Positions 4,413-59,118 are shown, numbered from the stretch's first letter. The stretch is 64,000 nt of DNA from a virus (IMGVR_UViG_3300024268_000001), one strand, 5' to 3'. The notes: generated by a model from the letters alone, not told the origin. Made by a program: numbers and translations.

Positions 4413-5600
4413 ATGAAGATTGATTTATCGACTATCAAAAATGACCTCCTCACTTCTGGTATGAAACTCGCTTCCGCTATCGAAAGCAAGGGTTACGAAG
4501 CATATCTGGTTGGCGGTTGCGTTCGTGACATGGTTCGTTGGACTATTGGCCAATGTGGTTTTCCGGATATTCACGATATTGACATCAGCACGAACATGCC
4601 TATCGATGAACTTCAGAAAAACTTCAAAACTGCCAGTAACAATGGCGAAGCTCACGGCACTATTCTGGTTTTCCAGGACGGTGAGCCTTTTGAAGTGACT
4701 CAGTTCCGTACCGATGGCGCTTATACCGATGGTCGTCACCCGGATTCAATCAAGTTCGCCAAGACTTTCAAGGAAGACTGCTTACGCCGCGATTTTACTA
4801 TCAACGCAATGGGTCTTACCGGTCAGGGTGAAGTCATTGACTATTACGGTGGTATCGATGATGTTACGAACGGCATTATCCGAGCTGTCGGTAAGGCAGA
4901 AGACCGTTTTGCTGAAGATTATCTCAGAATTTTCCGCGGTGTTCGTTTCATGGTCAACTTCGACTATTCTTTGGCTGATAGTACCTATGAAGCGATGAAG
5001 ACAACCGTTGATACTTATACTTATAAGATTAACTCTCTGTCTTATCCTCGTATTCGTGATGAAATCAGCAAGGTCAAGAATCCTTCTAAGAATCTCGCTT
5101 TGTTTTTCACGACACTGTATCGTACCGGTATTCTGAAATACTTGGTTACTTTCGAAGATGTTGATATTCCGGGTCTGATTGCACGTTTAGAATCTGTAAA
5201 TCATCTCACTGCGGATAACATCTTTGCGGTTATCGCTTTCGGCGAATACGACGTAATGTTACATCGTCTTGCTGCTACTCGAGAAGATTCTCGTTTGCTC
5301 AAGTGGTATTATTACATGCTCAAGAAGCTGAAAGAACCTAACGAAAATACAAGCTGGGACACTATTGTTAAATTCGTCGAAGGTGATTACAAAACTCTCC
5401 TCGAACTGTCCAAGATTGTTCCTGCCTGGTATAACAGAATTCCTATCGCTTTGAAGCTTAAAAAGGATAAACCCGATTTACATGCTATCTCTGAAAGAGT
5501 TCAGAACGAATTTCATGTTAAACCAGGTCCTAAGTTCGGTGCAGCTGTTAGCTACCTGCTCGAAGAGGCTTACGAAGCAAAAGCAAGGCATCTTCAATAA
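4413..5600 (+). CDS. cca: tRNA nucleotidyltransferase (CCA-adding enzyme) / poly(A) polymerase family
   Basis: 'LVGGCVRDMV' (GGxVRD) followed by 'DIDIST'. These are the class II nucleotidyltransferase head-domain signatures. 395 aa. Confidence 0.8.
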   Translation: MKIDLSTIKNDLLTSGMKLASAIESKGYEAYLVGGCVRDMVRWTIGQCGFPDIHDIDISTNMPIDELQKNFKTASNNGEAHGTILVFQDGEPFEVTQFRTDGAYTDGRHPDSIKFAKTFKEDCLRRDFTINAMGLTGQGEVIDYYGGIDDVTNGIIRAVGKAEDRFAEDYLRIFRGVRFMVNFDYSLADSTYEAMKTTVDTYTYKINSLSYPRIRDEISKVKNPSKNLALFFTTLYRTGILKYLVTFEDVDIPGLIARLESVNHLTADNIFAVIAFGEYDVMLHRLAATREDSRLLKWYYYMLKKLKEPNENTSWDTIVKFVEGDYKTLLELSKIVPAWYNRIPIALKLKKDKPDLHAISERVQNEFHVKPGPKFGAAVSYLLEEAYEAKARHLQ

Positions 5601-6514: not shown

Positions 6515-7783
6515 TCATTCTTCAATAGTCCTCTGCACGTTAGAAGGTTCCAATTTTTTGTGAACTGCACGCTTAACAGATGCATAATTAGTGATATTAC
6601 GATTAATGCACTTGATAGCCTGCATAATAGCCCCAATATCGCTCTTATAGTGCTCCAGAGCGTATTCGTAGCGAGAACGCTGGTCTTCGCAAGCCTTCAT
6701 GGTTTCGCGAGCCTCAGCGAGAACTTCTTCAGTACGTTCCTTAACCTGAATGCGGACACTTTCGGCGTATGCACGTAAATCAGGGAATTCTTCAGGAATA
6801 TACAGAACTTCATCATCTACAGGCTTGTAACCGTTAGTCTTGTCGACATGGGCATGGAAGAAATCCTTTTCACAGTCATACGCTACCCAGATATTCCACT
6901 CGCTGAGGCATTCGAATATCTTTGCGAGCTGGCACCATTCATCGGATTTAACCTTGACCTTGAATCCATATTCCGGGAAAGTTACAACATAACCTTCCTG
7001 AGACGAAGGAAGCTTGGTCGCAGTATTTCGAGCGTCATTGAAATTATCGTATTCATAGATTTCTGCCATCTTGATTTGCCAAGTATTGGCATAAGCGCTA
7101 AGTCCAATAATATGCTCTTCAGCACCAGTTTCATTGTCGATAACTGCCAAAAGAACAAGACCTTCAAAATCATAACGAATCGGGTGAAAATCTTCATTTG
7201 AAACAATTTCAAACAAATAAGTTTTCTTCGGATTCAAAGTTGCCGCATGAGGACCGCCGATATGCTGGTCAAACCAACGCTGTCCCCAAATTGCCTGGTC
7301 AGAATCGAAAGATCCACCGGTCTTCAACTGCCAATGCTTAAGATAAGGATTCCAGAATACAATACCTAAAGAACCGTCCACCTTTTCCATAGTCAGGAAA
7401 CGAATAGACTTGAGAATCTTTCGAATATCAATTTTCTTCTGGTACTTCATTACCTTTTTTGCAAGGTCGGTAAGTTCGCCAGTTTCGTTGTTAATCAATT
7501 CGCCATAGTTGAAGAATTTATCAAAAGGACGTGCTACAATTTCGCCGGTTTCAGAATCGAAAACAATACCACGAGCATTGAGAGTAATTTCATCCCAATC
7601 CGATGAATATACTGTTTCACGAGTATACTTGAAACCAACCAGCTTACCATACCAGTGAGCTGAAATACGTCCCTTCTTTGCTGCCTTCAAATACTTACGG
7701 AGTCTGTGCTTGTTCCGCAGTTTCCGGAGTAGGTTCTTCAGCCAAGTCATCATTTTTCTTTTCCACCTTTTTCTTAGGCTCAT
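6515..7783 (-). CDS. RNA ligase-like nucleotidyltransferase (Rnl1-type KxDG motif)
   Basis: 'FLTMEKVDGSLGIVFW' covalent nucleotidyltransferase motif I. 422 aa. The N-terminal 30 codons overlap ORF 7695..7970, so the true start is uncertain. Confidence 0.55.
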   Translation of the reverse strand: MSLRKRWKRKMMTWLKNLLRKLRNKHRLRKYLKAAKKGRISAHWYGKLVGFKYTRETVYSSDWDEITLNARGIVFDSETGEIVARPFDKFFNYGELINNETGELTDLAKKVMKYQKKIDIRKILKSIRFLTMEKVDGSLGIVFWNPYLKHWQLKTGGSFDSDQAIWGQRWFDQHIGGPHAATLNPKKTYLFEIVSNEDFHPIRYDFEGLVLLAVIDNETGAEEHIIGLSAYANTWQIKMAEIYEYDNFNDARNTATKLPSSQEGYVVTFPEYGFKVKVKSDEWCQLAKIFECLSEWNIWVAYDCEKDFFHAHVDKTNGYKPVDDEVLYIPEEFPDLRAYAESVRIQVKERTEEVLAEARETMKACEDQRSRYEYALEHYKSDIGAIMQAIKCINRNITNYASVKRAVHKKLEPSNVQRTIEE

Positions 7784-9051: not shown

Positions 9052-10170
9052 TTACTTCTGCAGATAATCTTGAATAATCTTTTCATGATGGAAACCCATC
9101 TTCGGAAGATTACCGACACTGAACCATGCTGCATCCTTCGCATCGTCGCCGGCCTTAGCCATCTTCTTTTCCTTACCAGTAACCCTTACAGATACTGCTG
9201 TATCGATAATACGCAAGCGTGGGTCAAACATATGGCTATAGGTCTTAATCTGTTCGAACTTTTCAACTGGGAGGTTCAGAGACGTTTCTTCGCGGAATTC
9301 ACGCTGTGCTGCATGTTCCAAAGAAGCATCAGCCTTTTCAGGAAGTCCGGTTTCCTTATTGATATAATCAACCGGATTAAAGAATCCACCAGGAGTACAG
9401 AAGTAATTCATATACGGTGGTTTCCTACGGCGAATCAACAGAACTTCATCACCGGAAATACCGACAATATCAACCGTGTTTGCAAACTTTCCCCAACCCT
9501 GCTTCTTATAGTTTTCAATCCACTGCTTTTCAAGTTCAGTATAGTTGGTCGGATTCTGGTCATAAAGACTGTTTGTCTTAATCGGATTATCACGGTCATC
9601 CGTAAGTTCGCCTTCTTTTCGGATATATTCAAACACTGGCTTGCTAATCAGTGTCTTAACATCCTTATAGTGGCATTCCGGATTACGGTAGAAAATTTTA
9701 CGAGCTTCGCTACTGGAAATACCTTCAGTCTTAATACCCATGAGATAAGTACAATCATAACCGTACTTCGATTTCAATGCACCATCATTATCATCACGAG
9801 GAATAACCAAGAACTTATAGTTATTCAAAAGCTGATTACCGAACTTCCACTTTCCGTTAACCAAAGAATACCATTCGTCTTCGCCGATAACAATAGTAAT
9901 ATCCTTATCCTTGGTACCGAACTTATGGGAAATGAATTCATAAGTCCTGTTATTCTGAACGAGAATCGTAGGATTCAACTTTCGTGCAGTCATTGCGACC
10001 TTAACCATCGCGACACGTTCATCTACCGGAGTCTTATAATTCTTTTCGTCCGTATTGGAAACAAGAACATAAAGTTCATCGCCCTTACGAACCTTTTTGC
10101 TCACTGCCTTAATAATAGCTTCATGAGCGTGAGTAATCGGATCAAATGCACCACCAATCAAATACTTCAT
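9052..10170 (-). CDS. nadM: bifunctional NMN/NaMN adenylyltransferase - Nudix hydrolase (NadM-like)
   Basis: N-terminus 'GGAFDPITHAH' is the cytidylyltransferase (H/T)xGH motif. C-terminus carries the Nudix box 'LEHAAQREFREETSL'. Strong RBS 'aggaga' 6 nt upstream. Confidence 0.75.
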   Translation of the reverse strand: MKYLIGGAFDPITHAHEAIIKAVSKKVRKGDELYVLVSNTDEKNYKTPVDERVAMVKVAMTARKLNPTILVQNNRTYEFISHKFGTKDKDITIVIGEDEWYSLVNGKWKFGNQLLNNYKFLVIPRDDNDGALKSKYGYDCTYLMGIKTEGISSSEARKIFYRNPECHYKDVKTLISKPVFEYIRKEGELTDDRDNPIKTNSLYDQNPTNYTELEKQWIENYKKQGWGKFANTVDIVGISGDEVLLIRRRKPPYMNYFCTPGGFFNPVDYINKETGLPEKADASLEHAAQREFREETSLNLPVEKFEQIKTYSHMFDPRLRIIDTAVSVRVTGKEKKMAKAGDDAKDAAWFSVGNLPKMGFHHEKIIQDYLQK

Positions 10171-12204: not shown

Positions 12205-12285
12205 CTTTTGTTTATGCATATAATATAGTAAAAATATTCATATTTGTCAACCTAAAAAATAAAAGGCTGACTTGCGTTAACCTTT
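12205..12285 (-). promoter_or_regulatory. sigma70-like promoter plus a degenerate copy of the conserved hairpin element
   Basis: Minus strand reads ggTTGACAaatatgaatatttttacTATATT. Upstream lies 'ggttaacgcaagtcagcc', a variant of the recurring GGTTGACGAAAGTCAGCC element. Confidence 0.5.
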
Positions 12286-14634: not shown

Positions 14635-15504
14635 TTATCGATTTTTTACAAAATCTAAAATATCCTTTTTAACTGATTCGTAGTAGTCATCCCAGATTTT
14701 CATAACTAAATTAATAGTTTTATCTGATACATCATCCATTTTTATCTTTTTTGTATAATTCGGAGATGCATTGAAAACATACTTATCGCCGAGAATGGCT
14801 TGTGCTTCATAAATTGGTGATTTTGAACTTCTTGCTACCCAATCTCCAATCATATATTCTGCCCATCCTAACAATGTTTTATTTCCATGTTCTGTATTTG
14901 GTGTATTCATTCCAGTATTAAAATTTAAAAGTTTAAGATTTCGATTGCCTTGTTTAAATTGACCAGCAATAACTATATCGGCAGGGTTATTTGCCCAACA
15001 GCCACCGTCCATATAAGAGTTTCCATCTTTTTCTATAACATCAAAATATGTAGGTGCTGCTGTTGATGTAAGTACAGCAAATGCCTTTGTTGTATCTTTA
15101 TCACCTAAATCCCACACTTTTTCTACAGAAGCACCATTCATAAATGTTGTTGTAATATAGATAGGTTTTTTCCAATCACTAACTTTACCTTTAAGTTTTT
15201 CTTCTAAAATTTTTTTAAGATTTGTATTATCATATGTTGGACACGTTGGTTTAAGTCGTTTATACCAGGAATTTTTTGTAAAAATTTTCTTTAAATTATC
15301 TTGGTATAATTTAAATATATCATGTGCACTCATACCTTCATTCATACATGCAGCAACTATTGAACCCGTAGAAGTACCAGTATATGCTGATACATAATCA
15401 CCTAATTTTTTACCTAGATCTTGTTCCAATCTGCACATAAATGCTAAAGGTCCCATAGCCAAGGCTCCACCACCTTCAATACTTAAACACAATTGTTTGC
15501 CCAT
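14635..15504 (-). CDS. patatin-like phospholipase
   Basis: Oxyanion-hole 'SIEGGGALAMG', nucleophile elbow 'GTSTG' and catalytic Asp motif 'YMDGGCWANNP'. Very AT-rich codon usage. RBS 'aggaga'. Confidence 0.8.
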   Translation of the reverse strand: MGKQLCLSIEGGGALAMGPLAFMCRLEQDLGKKLGDYVSAYTGTSTGSIVAACMNEGMSAHDIFKLYQDNLKKIFTKNSWYKRLKPTCPTYDNTNLKKILEEKLKGKVSDWKKPIYITTTFMNGASVEKVWDLGDKDTTKAFAVLTSTAAPTYFDVIEKDGNSYMDGGCWANNPADIVIAGQFKQGNRNLKLLNFNTGMNTPNTEHGNKTLLGWAEYMIGDWVARSSKSPIYEAQAILGDKYVFNASPNYTKKIKMDDVSDKTINLVMKIWDDYYESVKKDILDFVKNR

Positions 15505-15535: not shown

Positions 15536-16054
15536 TTATATAATTATATTATTCCGAATTTTTTCTATAAGTATATCCAACTCTTTTCTTTTTAAAATAA
15601 TAACATTATTTTTTATCATGCATTCTTGTTTTTCCAGTTGTAATTCTTTTGTAAATGGATTTATTAATTGATTATTATCATTAAAGAAAAAATCTCCTTT
15701 AACTTCATAAAATTTACCATTTATAATAAAATCTGGCTTATATTTATGTTCTTGTTCTTCTTTAATATAAGTAAACGTAATTTTTGGATGATATTCAAAC
15801 ACATTCTTACTGGACTGTAATGCTTCATATAATTCATATTCCCAGTGAGAATCGAAATATATATCATTATAATAAAAACCATATACTGTATGTGATTGTG
15901 TATTTGGATTTTGACCGGGATTTTTATAACCAGTTTTTTCATAATATGTTTGCTGACATTTAGCAAATGATTCAGGATTCGACCAATTATGGTAATACCC
16001 TGTTTTTCTAAAATATTCTTCAGAACGTTGTTTTAAATGTTCTGGATTTTTCAT
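15536..16054 (-). CDS. tandem-repeat protein (about 23-aa repeat 'xxYFxKTGYYHNWSNPES')
   Basis: Two repeat units follow the annotated ATG. A further 1.5 units continue in frame upstream to the TAA of the zinc-finger ORF at 16160. The true start or boundary is therefore uncertain. Confidence 0.5.
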   Translation of the reverse strand: MKNPEHLKQRSEEYFRKTGYYHNWSNPESFAKCQQTYYEKTGYKNPGQNPNTQSHTVYGFYYNDIYFDSHWEYELYEALQSSKNVFEYHPKITFTYIKEEQEHKYKPDFIINGKFYEVKGDFFFNDNNQLINPFTKELQLEKQECMIKNNVIILKRKELDILIEKIRNNIII

Positions 16055-16157
16055 ATTATGAGTATAACCAGTTTCTTTAAAATATGTATCTATACATTTT
16101 TGTCGTGAATCTGGATTAGACCAATTATGATAATATCCGGTTCTTTGAAAATATGTA
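15930..16157 (-). repeat. coding tandem repeat, about 69-bp units (about 3.5 copies)
   Basis: Repeated DNA 'ggattagaccaattatgataatatccggtt' / 'ggattcgaccaattatggtaataccctgtt'. Encoded units: TYFQRTGYYHNWSNPDSRQKCID, TYFKETGYTHNMKNPEHLKQRSEE, YFRKTGYYHNWSNPESFAKCQQ, TYYEKTGYKNPGQNPN. Confidence 0.7.
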
Positions 16158-20619: not shown

Positions 20620-20650
20620 TAAAAACTCCTTTTATAATTTTGTAATATAG

Positions 20651-20680
20651 AAAAAGGGGAGACTTTCGTCAACCCCTATA
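20651..20680 (-). promoter_or_regulatory. conserved promoter/hairpin element, copy 1
   Basis: Plus strand reads aaaaaggggaGACTTTCGTCAAcccctat. On the minus strand this gives GGTTGACGAAAGTC with flanking complementary A/G and C/T runs. Confidence 0.5.
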
Positions 20681-20881
20681 ATTCGGGTACATTCTGCAAG
20701 TGTCCCAAATATTTGCCTGTTCTTCATCTGACAAATAAATTGTCTGGTCTTCCGGAACTGACTTTCCTTCCAATCGATTCATAAATGAATTACGCATTTT
20801 TAAAATAGCATCTTGTCGTTCATCAATGCCATTGATACACATGTCGAATTTTTCAGCTAACTGTTGTGCTTTGGATTTCAT
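20669..20881 (-). CDS. hypothetical small protein
   Basis: 70-aa ORF. Its first ~12 nt overlap the conserved promoter/hairpin element at 20651-20680. Confidence 0.4.
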   Translation of the reverse strand: MKSKAQQLAEKFDMCINGIDERQDAILKMRNSFMNRLEGKSVPEDQTIYLSDEEQANIWDTCRMYPNYRG

Positions 20882-20893: not shown

Positions 20894-21322
20894 TTAATAA
20901 AGTTCTTTTGCAAAAAATTCTTTAGTAGCACTTTGCATAGCAACGGCTTTCCAATCCGATACAGTTTTGGTATTCATCCATTTATCCATATCATCAATCA
21001 TACATTGAGTTTTAGTCTTCAAACCAACAGACTTCAACAATTCACGTTGACGCCATTCATTAAAGTCTCGCTTTTTAGCATCTTGTTTTGCTCTGTATGC
21101 CAAAACCGCGGCTTCACCTTGTCTCTTTCGTCTTTCTCGTTTTTCTACACCAGTTTCCGTATCTGACAAAAGGTCATCGAATTCTTCAATCAGCTTTCCA
21201 AGCTTGTAATCTACACTATTTCGATAATCTTTTTGGAAAATGCATTCTAACATGCCTTGCATGTACAGAATAACAGCACCTATAAGAAGGACGCAAGCTG
21301 CAGAAATAATGATTGTTGCCAT
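20894..21322 (-). CDS. membrane protein (N-terminal TM)
   Basis: N-terminus 'MATIIISAACVLLIGAVILYM'. Confidence 0.5.
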   Translation of the reverse strand: MATIIISAACVLLIGAVILYMQGMLECIFQKDYRNSVDYKLGKLIEEFDDLLSDTETGVEKRERRKRQGEAAVLAYRAKQDAKKRDFNEWRQRELLKSVGLKTKTQCMIDDMDKWMNTKTVSDWKAVAMQSATKEFFAKELY

Positions 21323-21346
21323 GATGAACTCCTCTTGTTTATGTTC

Positions 21347-21386
21347 ATAATATAGAAAAAGGGCCGACTTTCGTCAACCCTTTATT
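21347..21386 (-). promoter_or_regulatory. conserved promoter/hairpin element, copy 2
   Basis: Plus strand reads cataatatagaaaaagggccGACTTTCGTCAAccctttatt. Confidence 0.5.
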
Positions 21387-21410
21387 ATTATAGGAGAAAA
21401 TATATACTTA

Positions 21411-23051
21411 TTAGCGACGACGGCGACGAGAAAGTTCAGCAATAACTGTCGGATCGTTCATCATGTCCGAAAGGCTACGTCCAATAGAAGTATTAGCTTC
21501 AGCCGGTTCCTTAGTCTTGTCAACATTCGGAGTTTCCGGACGAGCTTCAGCCTTAGGTTCATTTACGACTTCTGCTTCGGTCTTTTCAACCTTTGGAGCA
21601 CCGGAAACACCAGCGAGTCGGGCACCGAACATAGAACCGAGAACAGTCTTGAGGTCCATACCGAGAGAATCGGTCAAACCGCTAGAAATCTGAGTAAGCG
21701 TCTTGGTAATATCGCCGGTGAGCTTTGCAGTACCGCTTTCACCGTACATATTGATGTTACCAATCTTTTCCATCGGCTTAGCAACTGCACCAGCGATAGC
21801 CGGGAGCTGTTCGAAATACTTTTCAATAGTCTTGAGCTGCATTTCCTGACGAGCTGCATCACCATACTTCTTCATGGCTTCAGCCTTCTGGTCAAGAGCT
21901 GCTGCTTCTGCAAGACCCTTAGCCTTTACAGCATCAGCTTCAGCTTCACCCTTAGCCTTAGTAGCTGCAGCTTCAGCGAAAGCCTTTTCCTTATCAGCTT
22001 CAGCCTTGGCGATAATTGCCTTAGCTTGCTGCTGCTGGGTAAAGAGTGCTGCTTCAGCTTCCTTCTGCTGCTTATAAAGTTCAGCATCAGAACGCTGCAT
22101 CTGAGCCTGCTTATCGGCTTCAGCCTTCTTCTGAATTTCAGCTTCGAGTTCCTTCTGACGGACAGCTACCATGCGTTCACGAATTTCAATCTGCTTTTCC
22201 TGCTTTGCAACTTCTGCAGCTGCTGCAGTAATATTGATGGTCTTCTGCTGTTCCTGCTTCTGAATTTCATAAGCGGCATCAGCTTCGGCCTTCTTAGTAT
22301 CAGAAATTCGCTTAAGGTCAGCCTTCTTAACTTCGAGGTCGTTCTGCTTCTGAGCGATTTCAAGGTTTGCTGCAACCTGAGCATCGTTTGCTGTCTTCGC
22401 TGCTTCAGCCTGAGCAATCTTCACGTCACGTTCTGCATTTGCTCGAGAAATTGATGCAGCCTTCTGAATTGCTACAGCCTTATCAACACCGAGGTTTTCA
22501 ATTACCTTACCGTCGTCCGAGAAGTTCTGAATATTGAAGGTCTTAACGATAATACCGAGCTTTTCAAGATCTGGAATAGCATTTTCAAGAACCTTCTCAG
22601 AAACCTGCTTTCGGTCCGTAACCATGTCGACAAGATTCATCTGGCCGACAATCTCACGCATATTACCCTCAAGCACGTCAACAATCATCGCCTTAATCTG
22701 TTCAATCGGCTTATTGAGGAAGTTCTGGGCAGCTTTCTTAATTGCTTCAGGTTCATCAGAAATCTTTGCATTAACAACAGCGTCAACTGTTACATTAATG
22801 TAGTCCTTGGTCGGAACTGCCTGCTTAGTCTTGACGTCAATCGGAATCAACTTCAAGCTAAGAACGTCAGCACGTTCAAGGAACGGGATCTTGAAACCGG
22901 CATGCCCGATAATTGTTCGAAGCTGTCGGAAACCCGAAATAATAATTACTTCATCCGGCGCCGCCTTAATATAAGACGTAATGAAGAGGATAACGAGGAA
23001 AAGTACGAGCAGGCCGATACCCGCACCGATGAGGATATTTGAACTAAGCAT
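21411..23051 (-). CDS. flotillin-like SPFH/band-7 domain protein (YqiK-like)
   Basis: N-terminal TM. SPFH-like 'PDEVIIISGFRQLR...' region. Then a long Ala/Glu/Lys/Gln-rich coiled coil (AEAAKTANDAQVAANLEIAQKQNDLEV...). 546 aa. Confidence 0.75.
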   Translation of the reverse strand: MLSSNILIGAGIGLLVLFLVILFITSYIKAAPDEVIIISGFRQLRTIIGHAGFKIPFLERADVLSLKLIPIDVKTKQAVPTKDYINVTVDAVVNAKISDEPEAIKKAAQNFLNKPIEQIKAMIVDVLEGNMREIVGQMNLVDMVTDRKQVSEKVLENAIPDLEKLGIIVKTFNIQNFSDDGKVIENLGVDKAVAIQKAASISRANAERDVKIAQAEAAKTANDAQVAANLEIAQKQNDLEVKKADLKRISDTKKAEADAAYEIQKQEQQKTINITAAAAEVAKQEKQIEIRERMVAVRQKELEAEIQKKAEADKQAQMQRSDAELYKQQKEAEAALFTQQQQAKAIIAKAEADKEKAFAEAAATKAKGEAEADAVKAKGLAEAAALDQKAEAMKKYGDAARQEMQLKTIEKYFEQLPAIAGAVAKPMEKIGNINMYGESGTAKLTGDITKTLTQISSGLTDSLGMDLKTVLGSMFGARLAGVSGAPKVEKTEAEVVNEPKAEARPETPNVDKTKEPAEANTSIGRSLSDMMNDPTVIAELSRRRRR

Positions 23052-23090
23052 TTATGTTCCTTTTGTTATGTGTTTTTGTTTAGTTAAAAT

Positions 23091-23831
23091 CTAATCGTTC
23101 AGCCATGAGTTTTCCATTGCAATAAAGATACAACATATTACAATAATAACTATCGAGAAAATTATCCAGAAATACAATACTGTATGTTTCCAGCTAAAAT
23201 CCTCTACTGCTTGATCGATTTTTACATTGTCACGATATTCTGCATCATTCATTCGATGATTATCGATATTTGCATATACCGTTCCAGTAAAACTTAATGG
23301 GCGACAATAATAAACATATCGTTTATTATGTGCGAAATTGATTGTCTTTACATAATGACCGCTTGGCAATTCCGGAAACTGACCGTAGTAAAAGTCTTTC
23401 TTAATAAAATTAACTTTATCTACATTCCAGTCTTTTGCTCCATGATAGTCCCATGTCCAATAGACCTTAGTATGACAGCTACGTGTCTTTCCAGAACCAG
23501 TACAAACAAGCTTCGTATGCATCGTATAGACCTCGAGCACTCGATGGACTGACATATACTTACCTGGCAAACCGTCGTCTGTAACACTGCCTATCGCGGA
23601 AACAGTTCCGTATGCCAAAGTATGCCCAGCATTAGTATTGAATGCATATTGAAACTGTGTAGAATCGTTATCGATTTTCACAGCCTGATTGTACTTCGCA
23701 TTATGGTCATCTTGCCAAAGATCCATCCTATTACCTACGTAGAAACCTACTGCTAGGGAAATAAGAGCGAATACAAGCGCTACAATAACTTCACGCTGAG
23801 TTACTTCAATATTGGTATCACCAATATACAT
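23091..23831 (-). CDS. membrane protein (TM near both termini)
   Basis: 'VIVALVFALISLAVGFYV' near the N-terminus and 'VLYFWIIFSIVIIVICCIFIAM' near the C-terminus. Confidence 0.5.
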   Translation of the reverse strand: MYIGDTNIEVTQREVIVALVFALISLAVGFYVGNRMDLWQDDHNAKYNQAVKIDNDSTQFQYAFNTNAGHTLAYGTVSAIGSVTDDGLPGKYMSVHRVLEVYTMHTKLVCTGSGKTRSCHTKVYWTWDYHGAKDWNVDKVNFIKKDFYYGQFPELPSGHYVKTINFAHNKRYVYYCRPLSFTGTVYANIDNHRMNDAEYRDNVKIDQAVEDFSWKHTVLYFWIIFSIVIIVICCIFIAMENSWLND

Positions 23832-24388
23832 TAATTCTTTTCCTTAAGAAGTCCTGTGGGTGCGTCTACTGGCGCATTTGCAAATTCAAGAACCTTATAG
23901 TCCTTTTCCTGATAACCTAGAATACTCAAACAGATGTTTGACGGGAACATACGAACATGCTGATGATATTCGGTTACATTTTTATTATAATACTTACGAT
24001 GCGACGCAATTCGATTTTCAGTCATGGATAATTCATTCATGTACTGCTTATAATTTTCTATTGAACGCAATTCTGGATAACGTTCTACAACACCACGGAT
24101 ATATGCAGAAGCATTAACATTTCCGTTGCCTTCTGCTGGTGTACGAGCCTGTGATAGCTGTACCAAAACTTCGGCTTCATGCTTGTTATACGACATTACT
24201 GCTTCTGCCAAGTTAACAAGCAAGCCTGCACGTCGATTATATTCGGTGTTCAAATCGCTCAAAGAACTTTCAATGAGCAATTCCTTTGCGATTGCCTTAT
24301 TTTGTGAGCTTTGTACGCCAAACACTGTGGCGATAATCAATGCTACAATAATAGCAAGACTTGAAATTAAGACTGTTACGGGTTTCAT
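23831..24388 (-). CDS. lemA: LemA family protein
   Basis: N-terminal TM. 'EYNRRAGLLVNLAEAVMSYNKHEAEVLVQLSQAR' and 'TENRIASHRKYYNKNVTEYHQHVRMFPSNI' match the LemA family pattern. Confidence 0.65.
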   Translation of the reverse strand: MKPVTVLISSLAIIVALIIATVFGVQSSQNKAIAKELLIESSLSDLNTEYNRRAGLLVNLAEAVMSYNKHEAEVLVQLSQARTPAEGNGNVNASAYIRGVVERYPELRSIENYKQYMNELSMTENRIASHRKYYNKNVTEYHQHVRMFPSNICLSILGYQEKDYKVLEFANAPVDAPTGLLKEKN

Positions 24389-24400
24389 TGGTTTCTCCTA

Positions 24401-24913
24401 TTAGTTGTTATTTAAAAGCTTGGAAATGTCTTCAACGATCTTGGCTGTATCAAGTTCATTGACCGGCGGGTTATTTTTGCCTAAAAGTGTGTCTTCATTT
24501 CCTATATACTGGTAATCCCATGTAATAGACTTACCATCACTAGTTTCTAACATGGGAACAAGAACATGATAAATACCCTTATAGTTCTTATTCTTTTCAT
24601 TAAGCTGGTTTAAAATCTTATTTGCTGCGTTTTTAACAATTTTACTACGCATTTGAATACGGTCTGATTCAAATATCTTATTCAAAGAATCATTATAAGC
24701 CCAGAAACGTAATCTTTCATACCTAAACCATTCAACAACGTTAGGACCGTAATTTTCTCGCATATACGCTTCCATAGTCGGCGTAGTATCTGATTTTTCA
24801 GAAGTTCTTGAATTCAAAAGTTTTTCATAATGGTCAATATAAGCCTTAGCCGTAAGTCGATTGACCAAAACAGTCCATGCTACCAATAAACAAACAATAA
24901 TGACCGCTGCCAT
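24401..24913 (-). CDS. membrane-anchored protein
   Basis: N-terminus 'MAAVIIVCLLVAWTVLV'. RBS 'ggaga'. Downstream of promoter element copy 3. Confidence 0.5.
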   Translation of the reverse strand: MAAVIIVCLLVAWTVLVNRLTAKAYIDHYEKLLNSRTSEKSDTTPTMEAYMRENYGPNVVEWFRYERLRFWAYNDSLNKIFESDRIQMRSKIVKNAANKILNQLNEKNKNYKGIYHVLVPMLETSDGKSITWDYQYIGNEDTLLGKNNPPVNELDTAKIVEDISKLLNNN

Positions 24914-24943
24914 TTTAAATCTCCATGTTTACGTGGTAAATAT

Positions 24944-24977
24944 AAAAAAAGAGGTGACTTTCGTCAACCCCTTTTTA
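24944..24977 (-). promoter_or_regulatory. conserved promoter/hairpin element, copy 3
   Basis: Plus strand reads aaaaaaagaggtGACTTTCGTCAAcccctttttaat. On the minus strand this is TTGACG - N19 - TATATT, then RBS, then ATG. Confidence 0.55.
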
Positions 24978-24993
24978 ATAATTATTTACAGGC

Positions 24994-26304
24994 TTAGTCC
25001 TTAAATAGTGTATATCCTGCTTGTAAGAGAAGTTTCTTTGCTTCGTTGAAATCGTCGACATCAGAAATCTCTTCCTTATTTTTCCAGTATTCGGCTGTTT
25101 CCTTATCGAGCTGGTCAATCATGAATGTAGTGACTTCATCGAAAATCTTAAACAGCGTTCTTGTAGTATAGCCACGGTTGAATACAATCTTGAACTTATC
25201 GTAGAATTCCTGAATTGTACCGTCGAACGCACCCTTCTGACCGACATGGAACTTGCGGTTAAGCTGGTTCATGCAATACTTATAGCTTTCTACAACTTGT
25301 TTCTTGTCAACCTTACCAATCTTAGCCTTATCGACAGCACCATCTTCAGCGGCAACTGCTACAATCTTTCTAAGAACCGGAGTAGGAATCGAGAATCCAC
25401 CGAAGTTACCTTCAAAACTTCCGAAATAGCCGCCTTCATCATCATCATTGCTGAGATTACTGGAAGCGACACGGCGTTTTTCTTCAGCTTCAATCTGGTC
25501 AATATACTCTGGGTTATCAAGAGCTCTCATAATACGCTTTAATTCGCGGTCCAAAGCTGTTTCATCAGCGTTAATAACCTTACGGCCAAGCATTGCACCT
25601 ACAGTCTTTGCTACATAGAAGAATAGGCCCTTATTTCCGATAATACGTTCAGCATCCGGCATATTGAGAAGGTCTTCAAGTTTTTCAAGAACTGCTGTAC
25701 TGAGTGTATATTCCTTACCGTTCTTATGAGCACGGTGCCAATCCCAGAATTTGTCGATAGCACCTTCATAGCTGTTTTCAAAATCGTCGACAATATACGG
25801 AGCGAGCCAACGAGCAGCCTTTGAATAATCCTTTCCGAAAACTTCCTGAGCTTTTTCATGGTCATTCTTGAAAAGGTTAACAAGTTGCTGCATTGTCTTG
25901 TCTTGTGACGGGTCAAACGAAGAAAGATCCTTTCCTTCAGACTTGGCCTTGTAGTATGCCCAGAAAACATCAATCATATCGTCATATTTGTCTTTGTTTT
26001 CTTCGACATATGCCCAATCATCACCCAAATTAATATTATTCTTCTTTGCAATATCTTCGATTTTCCATTTCAAGTCAACTTTAGCGGTACTACCTTTCCA
26101 GAAGTTAATACCAAGCTTAGTTAACATATTTTCAGCGTCATCGCCATAATAACGTTCAATAAACTTGTAAACCTGGTTGGCTGTTACCTTTCCATTGTTT
26201 TCTGCAAAATCCTTAAGAATATAAAGGGCATTGGCAATGGAATCTCTTCCAAGAGTCCTATCAGAAGCTCTGGACATTTCATTAATAATATTCTTAAATC
26301 TCAT
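24994..26304 (-). CDS. hypothetical protein (436 aa)
   Basis: Long ORF. No motif recognised. Confidence 0.55.
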   Translation of the reverse strand: MRFKNIINEMSRASDRTLGRDSIANALYILKDFAENNGKVTANQVYKFIERYYGDDAENMLTKLGINFWKGSTAKVDLKWKIEDIAKKNNINLGDDWAYVEENKDKYDDMIDVFWAYYKAKSEGKDLSSFDPSQDKTMQQLVNLFKNDHEKAQEVFGKDYSKAARWLAPYIVDDFENSYEGAIDKFWDWHRAHKNGKEYTLSTAVLEKLEDLLNMPDAERIIGNKGLFFYVAKTVGAMLGRKVINADETALDRELKRIMRALDNPEYIDQIEAEEKRRVASSNLSNDDDEGGYFGSFEGNFGGFSIPTPVLRKIVAVAAEDGAVDKAKIGKVDKKQVVESYKYCMNQLNRKFHVGQKGAFDGTIQEFYDKFKIVFNRGYTTRTLFKIFDEVTTFMIDQLDKETAEYWKNKEEISDVDDFNEAKKLLLQAGYTLFKD

Positions 26305-27590: not shown

Positions 27591-28688
27591 TTAAAGGATT
27601 TCAAAATACGGTGCATATTTTTCCATGACTTCAATAACCTTCTTGTAATCAATCTTATTAAGATTCTTCGGAAGGTCCATACCGCCCTTGTTAATCAAAT
27701 CGCCACAATTTGCAAAATAAAGAAGCTTCTTTTCTTCACGACAAATTGTTTCCTGCTGAATTACAAGATTAAATTCCTTCTTAGGAAGATACTTCTTGAA
27801 ATTGGAAATATACTTCGTATAAACAGACTTCAATTCTTCAGCATGTTCAGGATCCGTAGTTGCAGAAAGCATCAAAATACCGTTATTGACATATTCAATT
27901 ACTCCAGCACGAGACTGATATGCAAGACCACGCTTTTCTCGAATTTCATGATAAAGCGGAGAAGTCAACTTACCGTTAAGCATTTCAAGGGCAATGACTA
28001 CATACGGATAATCCTTCTTGGAAACCGGCTTCTTACAGATTGCAAAAACAGTTTCTTTTTCAGGAGCCGGAACAGGCATCAAGCTAACCTTATAATCCTT
28101 CTTCCAACGAAGCTTTGTTGTAATTTCAGGCATCTTGGTCAAGAACTTAACCTTTACGCCAGTTGTCTGGCGAGGGCCGACTTCAACAATACGAACAGGT
28201 TTGAAAAGTTCCTTAAAAAGCTTCTTAGCGTCTGCAAGAGTAAAATTCATAATATCTTCAGTCTTGCCAAGAACGAAATCGTTATTGAAATGTTGACGAA
28301 GCAGGTTATGAAGCTTACCTTCTACAGGACGGTTAAATGCATCCAAAATTTCCTGGTAAACAATCTTTTGTTCTTTTTCGAAAACTTCCTTTGTGACATA
28401 AGTATCGAAACCGGTAGTAACACGTTCAATAAGCAACTTCTTCCATTCCGGAGTAAGATACTTATCCATGCCAGTAAAATGAACTACGAGCAAATCTGTG
28501 CTTGTATAGGCATTAAAATCGATGTTATATTTCTGAAAGTCATCAAATTGGTCTTGAATAGTATTCGTAATCAAGTGTTCCATCAAATGATGACAACCAT
28601 GCTGACCATCTTTTTCATAACTAGAACCTGCCTGGAATACGATATACAAGCCAGTCTTCTTAAAAGATTTCTTCTTATAGATATACAT
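27591..28688 (-). CDS. M16 (pitrilysin/insulinase) family peptidase-like protein
   Basis: Inverted zinc motif HxxEH in 'GCHHLMEHL' near the N-terminus. 365 aa, the size of a single M16 domain pair. Confidence 0.6.
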   Translation of the reverse strand: MYIYKKKSFKKTGLYIVFQAGSSYEKDGQHGCHHLMEHLITNTIQDQFDDFQKYNIDFNAYTSTDLLVVHFTGMDKYLTPEWKKLLIERVTTGFDTYVTKEVFEKEQKIVYQEILDAFNRPVEGKLHNLLRQHFNNDFVLGKTEDIMNFTLADAKKLFKELFKPVRIVEVGPRQTTGVKVKFLTKMPEITTKLRWKKDYKVSLMPVPAPEKETVFAICKKPVSKKDYPYVVIALEMLNGKLTSPLYHEIREKRGLAYQSRAGVIEYVNNGILMLSATTDPEHAEELKSVYTKYISNFKKYLPKKEFNLVIQQETICREEKKLLYFANCGDLINKGGMDLPKNLNKIDYKKVIEVMEKYAPYFEIL

Positions 28689-30505: not shown

Positions 30506-31360
30506 TTACTTTATATTTTTTATTATATTGGTATATTCAATTAAATTGACCATTAAGAGCGAAATACCAGAATTCATAGCGAATTCATTAAACTTCTTTG
30601 CTCTCGGTTCAGGAACATATTCAAAAGAATTAACTACTCGTTTAATTGCTTCAGTATATTCCGTTGGTATATTTTCAAATGAAATAAGCTTAGAATTCAA
30701 CATGAACTTTTCAGTAAGTTGATTTTCTTCAAGCCATTTATCGAGCTCGCCAGAATTAACAATCTTTTCAGCAGTCTTAATTCCAACGCCTTTTTTAATT
30801 CCCGGAATATCATCGGATTTATCGCCTGTAATAATCTTGACAAGCAAATCTGTTTCCGGATTCAATGTACTTAAATACTGTTTTTTTATCCCGTCGTACT
30901 GGTGATAATTTGCGCAAACAAAAAGTTGCATAAAGTCTCTGTCAGAAGAAACATTATAGCATTCCCATTCAGGATGGGATTTGACAATAACCGAAATCTG
31001 GTCATCAGCTTCGGTCTTGGGTACATCTACGAAATAAATATTCGTACCTTCAAATGCAACCTTCAAGCGTTCGAGCAAATCACTCCATACTGCAAAAAAT
31101 GCGTCGAAATTAACGATTGACGCAGAACGCTTTGCGGCACGACTGGCTTTATAACCTTCAAAAATATCTTTACGCCAGCTACTTCCATCAATACAACAAA
31201 AAACCCTATTAGGATTAATTTCACTAATAGCCTTAAAGAATGATGAAAAGAATGTCGCCTTAAATAACATGAACTCCTTTTCTTCTGGTCCAGGAGTTTG
31301 CGCAAATAAGCAGCGCATAATCATGTTTGAAATATCGAGGGTCAATATCTTGTTGTTCAT
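30506..31360 (-). CDS. 5'-3' exonuclease / flap endonuclease (RNase H, T4 rnh-like)
   Basis: PIN-like N-terminus 'LDISNMIMRC'. H3TH motif 'ITGDKSDDIPGIKKGVGIKTAEKIV'. Confidence 0.75.
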   Translation of the reverse strand: MNNKILTLDISNMIMRCLFAQTPGPEEKEFMLFKATFFSSFFKAISEINPNRVFCCIDGSSWRKDIFEGYKASRAAKRSASIVNFDAFFAVWSDLLERLKVAFEGTNIYFVDVPKTEADDQISVIVKSHPEWECYNVSSDRDFMQLFVCANYHQYDGIKKQYLSTLNPETDLLVKIITGDKSDDIPGIKKGVGIKTAEKIVNSGELDKWLEENQLTEKFMLNSKLISFENIPTEYTEAIKRVVNSFEYVPEPRAKKFNEFAMNSGISLLMVNLIEYTNIIKNIK

Positions 31361-33191: not shown

Positions 33192-34076
33192 TTATTTTAA
33201 CTCACCGATAGGTTCTTCTTTTCTAATCATGCCCTTAGGGAATCTTGAATCTCTATAATATTTTGTCATATCCCTACTTGCACGAATATTAGTGAATTCT
33301 TCCGGTTTCAATGTTGGCCATTCTCTGGTCCATTTTCCTTTATAATAACTAGGTATACCAGCTTCGCTTGCAGATTTTCCATCCTTTATAGCATTTAGGA
33401 TTTTATTAAGCTGTGTGTTATTTTTAGAAATACAGAAATAGCAAGTTCCCAAAGGACCGCCTTCAACTTTTACAATAACGTTTTTAAGACAGAAATCAAC
33501 AACGTACTTTTTATCCATCATTGCAACGCCAGTTTCTGTATTTTGAACCGCATATCTTTCAATATTGCCAAGTTCTGGATATTTAAGCGACATTTCATCT
33601 GCTAATTGTTTCCAAACACCAGTATGAGCAGTTTCGGCAGTATTATTCAGAATCTGGCGATAACGTGTAATAGCACGATAGCTTAAAGCACGTCTAGCGG
33701 CATCCCATTCAGCTTCCGTAAAACCTACAACGCAGTCACGGTAATAGTGAAGCATTTCATGAACAAATGTATTTCTAAAAGCGGCAAAAGTACCACAAGC
33801 ATTGATATTAAGTTTAATTTCGACACCTTCAACTTTACTTTCGTAAACATTCGGTCTCGGTCTAAAATAGCCATGAACACTTGTACCCTTGAACCAGCCT
33901 AATGAAATCGGTTGAAGCTTACCTCCGAAGTAAGTATCGTTAAATTCATTAAAATACTTCTTTAACGCTGCGTCATTCTTTTCGAATTCTTCGCCGGTAT
34001 CTGGGTCTGTAAGCTTAAAGCTTTCGTCTAATAAAAATTCTTCATTTTCCATATTATATTTATGACAATTCTTCAA
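33192..34076 (-). CDS. putative zinc metallopeptidase (HExxH, SprT/zincin-like)
   Basis: Single HExxH motif in 'NTFVHEMLHYYRD'. No other zincin features checked. Confidence 0.4.
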   Translation of the reverse strand: MKNCHKYNMENEEFLLDESFKLTDPDTGEEFEKNDAALKKYFNEFNDTYFGGKLQPISLGWFKGTSVHGYFRPRPNVYESKVEGVEIKLNINACGTFAAFRNTFVHEMLHYYRDCVVGFTEAEWDAARRALSYRAITRYRQILNNTAETAHTGVWKQLADEMSLKYPELGNIERYAVQNTETGVAMMDKKYVVDFCLKNVIVKVEGGPLGTCYFCISKNNTQLNKILNAIKDGKSASEAGIPSYYKGKWTREWPTLKPEEFTNIRASRDMTKYYRDSRFPKGMIRKEEPIGELK

Positions 34077-35970: not shown

Positions 35971-37122
35971 TTAGGCTACATTGTCTCGTTTTACGAAAAT
36001 GGTAAATCCAAGGAAACCAATAAAATAGAGAAGTGCCAAAACAAGATATAAAGTATTGTCAGTAAACAAGTTTCCAAGAATAGGTCCCGCAATTCCAGCA
36101 AATCCCCAGGCACTAAGCGTCATAGAGTGAACTGTAGAAAGACAACTATCTCCGAATCTCTTAGCAAGTAAACTTGGCAAACAACTGAATCCTCCGCCGT
36201 AGTTCCATTCAATCATCAAAATACCAGCTACAAGCAAAATCGGATTTTGTGTATAACACAAAAACGCACCAAGAATACCCAAACTTGCAACCCAATGATA
36301 AGCAGCCTTTCTACCAATCGAATCACTAGCCGTACTCATTCCAAATCGACCACCGACATTTGCAACAGCTGTAGCAGCCATAAGTGAAGCGATAGCAGTA
36401 TATCCAGCATTTAAAAACAGGCTCTTTTCCTGAGAAATAAGTGCAAGGCCGCATGTAATGTTGATAAAGAACATAAACCAAATCGAAATATATTCTTTAG
36501 TCAAAAATTTGGCCTTTATAAGAGTCTTATACGGAATAGCAGTATATTTTGTAGAAATATATGCAGGATTAGGTTTATATAGCCATGAAGAGAAACTCAT
36601 TACAACTAAGAAAATCAATCCCATGAGTAAGAATACAACTGGCAACGTAAAGGTTGCAAGCAAATACTCAATCATAGGAGCCGCAACGAACTTTCCCAAT
36701 CCGAAACCGGTAATAGCCAATCCGGAAGCGAGTCCTTTATGATTACTGAAGTTTGCAAGCAGCTGTTTAATTGGTGCCGTATAGCCTATGCCGGTACCGC
36801 AACCCATAAATGAACAGCCGATATAATAAAGTGGTAAAAATCCAGTATAGGTTGCAAACGAAAGTAGCAATAATCCTATTGCAAACAGAATTGTTGAAAC
36901 TATCGCCATTCGTTTCGGGAACATTTCAACGAATCTTCCGAAAACCGCAGCACCCATGCCAAGGAAGAAAATAATCAGAGTAAATCCAATATCAGCTGAG
37001 AATTTCGAAATATCAAAAGTCTCCATGATATTCTTGGCATATTGTGAATAGTTATAAACTGAACCTAAACTGACAGGTAACAAAATACCCGGAATTAAAA
37101 TATTGAGAAATCTATTTGTCAT
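35971..37122 (-). CDS. MFS-type transporter (about 12 TM)
   Basis: 383 aa. Hydrophobic helices are spaced regularly throughout (e.g. LNILIPGILLPVSLGSVY, GFTLIIFFLGMGAAVFG, LVLALLYFIGFLGFTIFV). Confidence 0.7.
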   Translation of the reverse strand: MTNRFLNILIPGILLPVSLGSVYNYSQYAKNIMETFDISKFSADIGFTLIIFFLGMGAAVFGRFVEMFPKRMAIVSTILFAIGLLLLSFATYTGFLPLYYIGCSFMGCGTGIGYTAPIKQLLANFSNHKGLASGLAITGFGLGKFVAAPMIEYLLATFTLPVVFLLMGLIFLVVMSFSSWLYKPNPAYISTKYTAIPYKTLIKAKFLTKEYISIWFMFFINITCGLALISQEKSLFLNAGYTAIASLMAATAVANVGGRFGMSTASDSIGRKAAYHWVASLGILGAFLCYTQNPILLVAGILMIEWNYGGGFSCLPSLLAKRFGDSCLSTVHSMTLSAWGFAGIAGPILGNLFTDNTLYLVLALLYFIGFLGFTIFVKRDNVA

Positions 37123-42070: not shown

Positions 42071-42647
42071 TGCATTTCAATGTTTCCATATCTTGACGTG
42101 CCATATAGCATACGCCAGTTCTGTAACGTTCTGAATTCTGGTTTTTACGTACTTCTTCCAATTCGTTGAGCAAATTGAAGAAAATATCCTTCAATTCTTT
42201 CGGGCTGTCGACACGTACATGACAACGAGGACGTGCATTCATAGCGCTAATCATAACATTTCGCTGTGCTTCCCAATCATCGCTATATGCATTGTTGTAC
42301 ATGGTATCGTCGAATGTCGCACGCATAGTTACATAGTAACGGCCGGTTTTCTTCTTGTTGTTACTGGCCATATCGATATGGTGCTTAATTCCGTCTTTTC
42401 CCTTTTGAACAATAAACGGAACACGGTTTGATTCAAAATTGAAAACAGAAAAACCGATAATGGAATATCCATATTCAGCAAACATGGTTTCAAAATGCTT
42501 AAGCTGATTTTCATAGATCTCTTGGAGTTCTATGCTTCTACGACGCTTGGAGTCGATAGCATGCTTAATATGCTCGATTTGTTCAAGCATTTTGTTTTCG
42601 TCTTTTGTAACTGCGGCATTTACTGCTTCTAAGAAATTTTTATACAT
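42054..42647 (-). CDS. family-B protein
   Basis: 'DIFFNLLNELEEVRKNQNSERYRTGVCYMARQDMETLKCIEKLD'. A -10 hexamer lies 6 nt before the ATG. Confidence 0.5.
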   Translation of the reverse strand: MYKNFLEAVNAAVTKDENKMLEQIEHIKHAIDSKRRRSIELQEIYENQLKHFETMFAEYGYSIIGFSVFNFESNRVPFIVQKGKDGIKHHIDMASNNKKKTGRYYVTMRATFDDTMYNNAYSDDWEAQRNVMISAMNARPRCHVRVDSPKELKDIFFNLLNELEEVRKNQNSERYRTGVCYMARQDMETLKCIEKLD

Positions 42648-42661
42648 GACTATAATATAAT

Positions 42662-42690
42662 AAAAAGGCTGACTTTCGTCAACCTTTTTT
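42662..42690 (-). promoter_or_regulatory. conserved promoter/hairpin element, copy 4
   Basis: Plus strand reads aaaaaggctGACTTTCGTCAAcctttttt. On the minus strand this is GGTTGACgaaagtcagcctttttatTATATTatagtcATG. Confidence 0.55.
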
Positions 42691-42710
42691 ATTTTAACTA
42701 TTACAGTGTG

Positions 42711-48741: not shown

Positions 48742-49152
48742 TTAAAGATACCTAGAAGCAATGTCCATAGAATAATCAAATGCTGTCTTCTTTGGCTGTT
48801 CTTCAGCAGGAGCAGGAGCCGGAGCAGCAGATGTTTCTGTGCCAGTCGGAGCCGGAGCTGGATTTGCTTCAGGAGCCGCAGGAGCAGCAGGAGCCGGAGC
48901 AGGATTTGCTTTAGGTGCAGGAGCAGCGGCCGGTTTTGTTTCCGGAGTAGCAGCCGGAGCCGGAGCTTCAGCAGGCTTAGCGGCAGGAGCCGGTTCATCA
49001 GCCTTACGAACATTATAACCAGCAGCCATTGCGATATTGCGAGCCTGTTCTACTTCATCCTTCGGGAGTTCAACGGTATAACCGCTGTTGCGAACAATAC
49101 GCTTTGCTCTAATAATATCTTCAACACTGTAATCACTCATATTTTTCCTCAC
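48742..49152 (-). CDS. protein with a Pro/Ala-rich low-complexity linker
   Basis: 'EPAPAAKPAEAPAPAATPETKPAAAPAPKANPAPAPAAPAAP'. Local GC spike. Confidence 0.5.
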   Translation of the reverse strand: MRKNMSDYSVEDIIRAKRIVRNSGYTVELPKDEVEQARNIAMAAGYNVRKADEPAPAAKPAEAPAPAATPETKPAAAPAPKANPAPAPAAPAAPEANPAPAPTGTETSAAPAPAPAEEQPKKTAFDYSMDIASRYL

Positions 49153-58387: not shown

Positions 58388-58395
58388 AGGAATAT

Positions 58396-59108: not shown

Positions 59109-59118
59109 CAGTATTACT

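Follow-up and report, generated by a model that had tools for sequence, protein, structure and literature searches.

Why should a phage encode, side by side, a flotillin, a LemA-family protein and several further membrane proteins? The question is raised by positions 20894–24913 of a 64,000-nt stretch of the virus IMGVR_UViG_3300024268_000001 (hereafter the window, meaning the whole stretch), where an original prediction had recognized a complete phage-borne membrane set under one conserved promoter element. Our analysis suggests instead that the block brings two modules together in a lineage-specific way, a flotillin module and a widespread cassette of LemA and a two-pass membrane protein, p246, because LemA/p246 usually occurs without a flotillin, most phage flotillins occur without LemA, and the fifth gene of the block, TM142, lies outside the operon. 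The window belongs to a jumbo phage known from rumen and gut assemblies, since its exact LemA protein occurs on contigs of up to 411 kb: it was found in 47 collection blocks, 24 of them with contigs of 0.2–1 Mb, the longest among the matches listed (JGI 3300024269 Ga0257076_10000013) measuring 411,269 bp. Near-identical and related contigs are present in IMG/VR, where the matching loci are viral contigs, and related contigs also occur in water-buffalo cecum and in ruminal metagenome-assembled genomes (MAGs). By megablast, none of the deposited phages is close to the window at the DNA level.

The five open reading frames (ORFs) of the block were recovered at exactly the positions first proposed, all on the minus strand and each with at least one hydrophobic segment. 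The gene at 21411–23051 (−) encodes a FloT-type flotillin of 546 aa, built of an N-terminal hydrophobic anchor, an SPFH domain, a long Ala/Glu/Lys-rich region and a flotillin C-terminal domain. Its SPFH domain matches Pfam Band_7 (PF01145; E 6.7e-22, 78.8 bits against a cutoff of 23.6, residues 30–207) and its C-terminal domain matches Pfam Flot (PF15975; E 4.6e-10, 40.1 bits against a cutoff of 27). Human flotillin-1 (9l3g_A, from the solved 44-mer) is matched over query residues 29–469 with E 2.8e-47, while QmcA and stomatin give weaker matches. The NCBIfam FloT model NF058507 aligns over model positions 7–475 of 477, at 247 bits against an equivalog cutoff of 700; the phage protein is best regarded as a flotillin-family member that is no equivalog of Bacillus subtilis FloT. 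It shares the anchor–SPFH–helical–C-terminal-domain architecture of bacterial FloT-type proteins (B. subtilis FloT/YuaG, Fibrobacter WP_088629361) and of eukaryotic flotillin-1/2, but differs from the bacterial ones in being phage-encoded and in scoring under the equivalog cutoff.

The LemA-family protein (23831–24388, −) consists of an N-terminal transmembrane (TM) helix, with hydrophobic residues 4–24, and a four-helix-bundle domain. It matches Pfam PF04011 (E 8.8e-28, 97.4 bits against a cutoff of 26.2, residues 43–165), phrog_1383 (E 6.6e-29) and the only solved LemA protein, PDB 2ETD (E 1.2e-19). The original prediction had staked itself on the SPFH and LemA assignments; both pass the Pfam thresholds and are strongly supported, so that it escapes refutation on this point. 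The phage protein has the same N-terminal TM helix and four-helix bundle as other members of the LemA family (PF04011), such as Thermotoga TM0961/2ETD, Listeria LemA and magnetosome MamQ, but it is phage-borne, is followed by a p246-family gene and is not a MamQ equivalog (59.4 bits against an NCBIfam cutoff of 250). Bacterial LemA genes usually adjoin TPM, DUF2207 or peptidase partners. To the LemA genes of Enterococcus Schiekvirus and Lysinibacillus phages the protein is 44–48% identical. One paper conflates the LemA family with the unrelated Pseudomonas LemA/GacS kinase.

The original prediction also placed the block, as a single contiguous unit, under a promoter element with copies at its two ends. 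The element is real: the 14-mer GGTTGACGAAAGTC has four exact copies in the window, against 0.28 expected, only on the minus strand, and three of the four cluster at 20.6–25.0 kb around the membrane-gene block. The corresponding elements, assigned to repeat family D5, lie at 24917–24980 (−), upstream of the TM170 gene; at 21327–21390 (−), between the flotillin and TM142 genes; at 20622–20685 (−), downstream of the p70 gene and outside the interval first considered; and at 42632–42695 (−), with a weaker copy near 12269–12282. The copies are not at both ends of the original interval, the one at 21327–21390 being internal to it. Read on the coding strand, the element comprises a GAAA-loop hairpin with TTGACG (−35) in its 5′ arm, a U-run, a 17-nt spacing and TATATT (−10). 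RNA folding of the hairpins gave free energies of −13 to −19 kcal/mol (z −2.1 to −6.3). For the copy upstream of TM170 the values are −14.9 kcal/mol and z −4.2, and a promoter scan returned TTGACG-17-TATATT, followed by GGAG and then the TM170 ATG; for the copy at 21327–21390 they are −18.7 kcal/mol and z −4.8, with a terminator call on an 11-bp stem. Because the −35 box lies in the 5′ arm of a stable hairpin and the −10 box follows the U-run, each copy is a composite of an intrinsic-terminator-like hairpin and a sigma70-type promoter, followed by a GGAG-type ribosome-binding site.

No copy of the element lies within TM170–LemA–p246–flotillin; the start of p246 has 1 nt in common with the stop of LemA, and gaps of 12 and 39 nt separate the other genes. 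These four genes are predicted to form one transcription unit with element copies at both sides, and TM142 and p70 a separate one, since the second copy falls between the flotillin and TM142 genes; the element at 21327–21390 would both end the four-gene operon and start the TM142 unit. The contiguous block of the original prediction thus survives as an operon of four genes and loses TM142. The latter (20894–21322, −) has an N-terminal TM helix and a charged helical region, matches no family in Pfam, PHROG or NCBIfam, and has homologues only in the two closest relatives of the window (L002 and L003). The gene co-transcribed with it, p70 (20669–20881, −), encodes a small soluble protein of 70 aa, and the −35 box of the following element copy (20661–20674) contains the TGA stop of p70.

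The partner of the phage LemA is p246 (23091–23831, −), a protein with two TM helices that belongs to the uncharacterized family PHROG 3886 (E 3.2e-50, residues 7–244). An exhaustive profile search recovered 919 clusters at 50% identity, with full-length alignments and nearly all of 230–290 aa, and there are more than 520 IMG/VR matches to p246. No Pfam family was found in 24 members at E ≤ 1, nor in longer representatives. The sole match of the p246 profile to PDB sequences, a nanobody, was spurious, and a 387-aa homologue (P0067) considered as a LemA–p246 fusion was rejected, as its N-terminal extension holds no LemA domain. Coupling was counted over the 80 best viral loci, with six genome loci taken apart. 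LemA lies upstream of p246 at 79 of the 80 viral loci and at all six genome loci, on the same strand wherever coordinates were listed, and the sole viral locus without it has no room upstream of p246. A strict adjacency filter passes 61 loci and rejects 17, in all of which the LemA end falls just within an over-extended p246 start. Gaps are mostly −4 to +5 nt; about eleven loci have 197–330 nt, with a small inserted ORF in those inspected.

The same adjacency occurs in cultured phages, namely Enterococcus Schiekvirus EFDG1 (gp156/gp157), Lysinibacillus LC76P1, Latilactobacillus TMW 1.46 P1 and Lactococcus PLg-TB25. There the pair, on the lytic strand, has early, replication and nucleotide-metabolism genes around it or directly precedes the late activator and terminase; no lysis genes adjoin it, and both temperate and virulent phages carry it. 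Compared with the PHROG 1383/PHROG 3886 pair of Schiekvirus EFDG1 and other Firmicutes phages, the pair studied here has the same order, strand, overlap and early/nucleotide-metabolism setting, at about 45% identity for LemA and about 25–36% for p246, but those phages have neither flotillin nor TM170 and their p246 homologues lack the cysteine pair described below. The names deposited for the Schiekvirus-type pair conflict, ranging over ‘virion structural protein’, ‘putative repressor’, ‘transmembrane protein 43’ and ‘RING-type E3 ubiquitin transferase’. Judged from its gene neighbourhoods, LemA/p246 is an autonomous cassette, carried by hundreds of phages without flotillin.

An AlphaFold2 model of p246 (mean predicted local distance difference test score 88.8) consists of a TM helix, a beta-rich domain at about residues 51–201 with two very long strands, and a second TM helix. 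Cys110 and Cys119 (window 23475–23504) stand at either side of the tip of the long hairpin. Across 175 members of the family, 36 have both cysteines, 139 have neither and none has one alone; the distant homologues P0029–P0032 have Thr or Ser at both positions. Because the pair is all-or-none, we infer that it forms a disulfide, which would therefore place the beta domain outside the cytoplasm and both termini of p246 inside it.

How far do the two modules belong together? The order TM170–LemA–p246–flotillin is colinear in five related viral contigs (L002–L005 and L020), with identities of 31–99%. The flotillin remains 88–99% identical across these contigs, TM170 as little as 31%, and colinearity that persists at such divergence of TM170 argues that the block is no chance juxtaposition. 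A second order, LemA–p246–p136–flotillin, is found in L008 and L121, and a third, p436–TM170-like–flotillin without LemA–p246, in two lineages (L006/7/9 and L124); in L006/7/9 the stop of TM163 overlaps the flotillin start. TM170 itself (24401–24913, −) is the first gene of the operon. Its product is bitopic, an N-terminal TM helix being joined to a small alpha/beta domain, and the gene is a fast-evolving but recurrent upstream neighbour of phage flotillins. The gene upstream of the operon, p436 (24994–26304, −), has no family match in Pfam or PHROG; its homologues precede TM170-like and flotillin genes, at 58% identity in L124 and 33% in L006/7/9, and because of this synteny in other phage lineages p436 is possibly linked in function to TM170-like proteins and flotillin.

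Outside these lineages, flotillins of more distant phages (41–44% and 58% identical) stand alone amid variable neighbours. In T4-like phages of the pig gut (L110–L113; contigs of up to 221 kb with neck protein, RegA and NAPRTase genes) the flotillin is 58% identical and LemA is absent, and flotillins thus recur across several large gut phage groups. In two further contigs (L122 and L123, 3292–3981) an IF3-like gene with IF3_N and IF3_C domains lies immediately upstream of the flotillin gene. The p136 gene (5578–5988 in L008, 3578–3988 in L121 and 204–614 in L120) encodes a soluble protein of 136 aa with repeated ‘SGDV.V.G.V’ motifs, and in this lineage it adjoins the flotillin upstream, after p246. 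It matches Toastrack/DUF4097 (E 4.7e-4, 20 against 22.9 bits) and Bactofilin (E 0.07) below threshold. In envelope-stress systems, the Toastrack domain has been suggested to serve as a platform for assembly beneath the membrane (PMC11237479). The apparent Toastrack likeness of p136, a protein not encoded in our window, is a hint and not a finding.

The relationship of the flotillin itself points to a bacterial source. Among 7,849 homologues, the nearest named cellular ones are from Fibrobacter, for instance WP_088629361, to which the phage protein is 73% identical over 474 residues. In Fibrobacter the flotillin gene has a stable housekeeping context, with panD, ArgRS, RsfS and Fib_succ_major paralogues. 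The phage gene has a GC content of 0.465, the highest of the region, against 0.36 for the window, and a GC content at third codon positions (GC3) of 0.43, against 0.29–0.33 for its neighbours and 0.63 for the Fibrobacter gene; these elevated values would fit a gene that came from a genome of higher GC and has ameliorated only in part. In a neighbour-joining tree, the main long-tailed phage clade is the sister of the Fibrobacter clade, while a three-member group with tails of 81–86 residues falls on the Fibrobacter side. The phage flotillin was probably acquired from a chromosomal Fibrobacter gene.

The phage protein differs from the Fibrobacter flotillins by a C-terminal extension of about 64 aa with a polybasic end, which they lack. 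It is encoded at 21411–21602 (−; residues 484–546 and the stop) and comprises a Pro/Glu/Ala/Lys-rich linker, SLSDMMNDPTVIAELS and RRRRR. Beyond the ‘KLAGV’ motif, phage-clade members have 49–86 residues, compared with 9–16 in Fibrobacter chromosomal flotillins; the outliers in the phage clade are three with 21–24 residues, one variant with 39 and two in which the motif was not found. The end is conserved across phage sublineages as RRRRR, RKRK or KLPWE, after a short conserved segment, whereas the extension is missing from the flotillins of pig-gut T4-like phages, at 58% identity. Flotillin builds domes or cages on membranes, according to two structural reports (PMC11260169, PMC13000311). By homology to the 44-mer structure (PMC13000311), the phage flotillin may likewise oligomerize into a cage, and its extension would then stick out at the apex, provided that the architecture is the same. 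The identity of 73% further suggests that the phage flotillin could co-assemble with that of its host. The host is tentatively Fibrobacter. Of two MAG contigs with LemA–p246–flotillin, one is binned as Prevotella (L024) and the other as Fibrobacter (L025); their identities to the three query proteins are the same, so that they look like one, or nearly one, sequence.

The term ‘complete set’ used in the original prediction is not borne out. A hidden Markov model check that it had proposed for NfeD/TPM gave no match for any of the five proteins, NfeD/YuaF/YqiJ and TPM being absent at Pfam E ≤ 0.1; the partner of LemA is p246; the two modules mostly occur apart; and TM142 is not conserved. No NfeD/YuaF/YqiJ-type membrane partner gene adjoins the flotillin gene, which is the mark of the canonical bacterial flotillin/SPFH operon, and its position is taken by the non-homologous, bitopic TM170. 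YuaF/YqiJ is a typical member of bacterial flotillin operons and PspA, CesT/Tir or AAA+ proteins are occasional ones, and in envelope-stress PSP systems Band-7/flotillin is partnered with Toastrack proteins (PMC11237479). Compared with such PSP neighbourhoods (Band-7/flotillin, YuaF/YqiJ, Toastrack, TPM; PMC11237479), the resemblance lies in the Toastrack-like p136 before the flotillin of sister phages, with its match below the Pfam threshold, whereas PspA, PspC, YuaF/YqiJ, AAA+ and CesT/Tir are absent from the genes of the block.

Our preferred reading, to which we assign a probability of about 40%, is that the two modules are early phage scaffolds on the host inner membrane, stabilizing and partitioning it through the long infection of a jumbo phage. 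A host-type, sigma70-type promoter would drive the four genes early in infection, hairpin terminators bounding the operon. In the first module, a FloT-type flotillin cage would have TM170 as a small bitopic partner, and the gain of about 64 aa would add to it a flexible linker, a short helix and RRRRR. In the second, LemA would act as a membrane-proximal four-helix-bundle scaffold, while p246 would be a two-pass membrane protein that presents its beta-rich domain, stapled by a disulfide, on the non-cytoplasmic side. Together these scaffolds would keep the inner membrane intact, energized and organized for phage membrane proteins. The membrane-protective frame is suggested by the recruitment of PspA to the membrane by an SPFH protein (PMC8581546) and by the PSP neighbourhoods (PMC11237479); the scaffold role of LemA is suggested by MamQ and by a prediction-based preprint, which proposes that LemA-like domains act as scaffolds on the membrane face (bioRxiv 10.64898/2026.07.15.738315). 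Oligomeric state, topology, timing, host and physiological role are what we infer here, on top of the observed gene identities, operon boundaries, synteny, LemA–p246 coupling, Fibrobacter relationship and tail. Remodelling of the host membrane, as the original prediction had it, is a reasonable inference, and the data do not discriminate among the forms that it suggested, namely a compartment, lysis timing or exclusion.

Several points weigh against this reading. The flotillin lies beside LemA–p246 at just three of the 80 loci and most phage flotillin loci have no LemA, and the adjacency could be a genomic accident in an accessory-gene hot spot. Any physical interaction among TM170, LemA, p246 and flotillin is hypothetical. 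The structure model of TM170 is of moderate confidence and its fold match is weak, and the positive-inside counts of p246 do not decide its topology. The phage flotillins form a sister clade of the Fibrobacter flotillins instead of branching within them, and the direction of transfer is for this reason likely but unproven; the host call, tentative as it is, leans on the similarity of one gene and on inconsistent MAG binning. Literature searches turned up no functional study of phage LemA or of LemA partners, and none of a phage or jumbo-phage flotillin.

Other roles can be read into the same genes. One is superinfection exclusion, or competition between phages more broadly. The membrane proteins, chiefly LemA/p246, whose beta domain would be exposed, would keep secondary phages from bringing in their DNA or using their receptor, much as the small membrane superinfection-exclusion (Sie) proteins of other phages do. 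The distribution of the pair is suggestive in this respect. Temperate as well as virulent phages carry it, on the lytic strand and among the accessory genes of the early region; in temperate siphophages it directly precedes the late activator and terminase. This last position often houses accessory or competition genes. The probably extracytoplasmic location of the large domain of p246 would suit such a role, and the divergence of TM170, at 31–50% identity where the flotillin is at 88–96%, fits an arms race. However, p246 and LemA are conserved and not diversifying, the 919 p246 clusters aligning full-length, and prophage exclusion genes are usually expressed in the lysogen, whereas the pair lies here in a lytic early operon. 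Moreover, no homology to known Sie proteins was found, and a flotillin scaffold of 546 aa is unlike any known exclusion system. Searches with PADLOC defence models gave no significant match, the best being PDC-M04A (E 9.5e-4 at 16.6 bits) and RTasTM and LmuB (E about 6e-3); with matches so marginal, a reading as a defence system was dropped. On balance we consider exclusion unlikely.

A role in the subversion of host rafts is doubtful to a similar degree. Here the phage flotillin would be a mimic that co-assembles with the Fibrobacter flotillin, and its polybasic tail would retarget or poison the rafts, with effects on secretion, proteolysis or envelope synthesis, or would tether nucleic acid or a replication or assembly site. 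The 73% identity to the host-type protein extends over the SPFH, coiled-coil and C-terminal oligomerization regions, and the tail is limited to the phage clade, with an end conserved across sublineages. In one structural report, the narrow end of the flotillin cage is described as touching a second membrane (PMC11260169). The argument is nevertheless purely inferential and the Fibrobacter host tentative. In addition, the tail appears dispensable for a useful phage flotillin, because the 58%-identical flotillins of pig-gut T4-like phages do without it.

A bolder combination of these ideas with the scaffold reading seems to us quite improbable. Hybrid cages of phage and host flotillin would display dozens of polybasic tails at their apex and, together with TM170 and LemA/p246, form a phage-defined membrane compartment that tethers nucleic acid or the assembly machinery, or shields against abortive-infection effectors. 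If true, such a compartment would show a virus of bacteria doing what eukaryotic viruses do when they hijack rafts, and the hybrid cages would offer a natural gain-of-function handle on the role of bacterial flotillins.

Lysis timing, one of the functions first proposed, has a very low probability in our view. The module would organize or restrain holins and membrane lesions, so delaying the lysis of a slow jumbo-phage infection until assembly is done. All products of the block are inner-membrane proteins, and SPFH proteins regulate membrane proteases and complexes such as HflK/C–FtsH. The few weak matches to holin-family Pfam models among p246 homologues are caused by TM segments alone. Against these stand the lack of any identified endolysin or holin beside the block in the window or at related loci, and of lysis-related Pfam or PHROG matches in the block or its immediate neighbours (the 64 kb as a whole were not scanned exhaustively), the location of the pair in temperate phages at the genome end opposite the usual site of the lysis cassette, and a promoter that falls into one host-type class with the promoters of the early or metabolic genes around it. 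That the genes have no joint function at all, but are independently useful accessories brought together by chance in a variable region, each acting alone, agrees with LemA–p246 and flotillin being usually unlinked amid highly variable neighbours, yet we hold it to be very improbable too, as the adjacency of LemA–p246 and flotillin recurs in two gene orders, between lineages with flotillins of about 70% identity, and the four genes, very closely spaced, have a single promoter and a single terminator in common.

The two modules bear on proteins whose physiological functions in bacteria, flotillins and LemA alike, are still debated. Large gut and rumen phages repeatedly carry flotillins, and one clade has a flotillin closely related to a chromosomal bacterial one and modified with a conserved tail. 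Phage LemA is locked to a previously unnoticed two-pass membrane partner on hundreds of viral contigs, including those of cultured, tractable Enterococcus phages. The phage flotillin and LemA/p246 are testable entry points to scaffold roles during infection, and the similarity of the flotillin makes Fibrobacter a candidate host of this uncultured jumbo phage, which exceeds 400 kb.

The remainder of the window fits a large phage. In family searches, the neighbours of the block are phage-type nucleic-acid enzymes, including a MazG/dUTPase-like protein. The set further comprises a CCA-adding tRNA nucleotidyltransferase (4413–5600, +), an RNA ligase (6515–7783, −), a NUDIX/cytidylyltransferase fusion (9052–10170, −), a T4 RNase H-like 5′–3′ exonuclease (30506–31360, −) and an SprT-like protein (33192–34076, −), and constitutes an accessory, nucleic-acid repair region typical of jumbo phages. 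No tRNA gene, sought as a clue to the host, was found within the 64 kb. Another phage-made inner-membrane protein is an MFS transporter (MFS_1, E 4e-26; 35971–37122, −). A patatin-like phospholipase (E 5e-20; 14635–15504, −), with a GC3 of only 0.18, is a lipid-modifying enzyme that may be relevant to the theme of membrane remodelling. A homologue of M16 (insulinase-like) peptidases is encoded at 27591–28688 (−), where models of both the active and the inactive domain match.

Several repeats were also observed. Three tandem-like 69-nt repeats (15925–16154; 63–75% identity) lie over the 5′ part of ORF 15536–16054. A low-complexity, highly acidic Glu/Gly/Asp-rich repeat (46384–46885) falls in the minus-strand ORF 46199–47065, and an Ala/Pro/Gly-rich low-complexity repeat (48801–48990), also in a minus-strand ORF, lies upstream of ORF 47893–48672. 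The coding strand switches at about 56 kb, and beyond the switch, at 57781–63344 (+), start-codon-associated short repeats containing CCATGATTAAA accompany repeated TATAAAGATAT segments, which suggests a tandem array of small paralogous genes.

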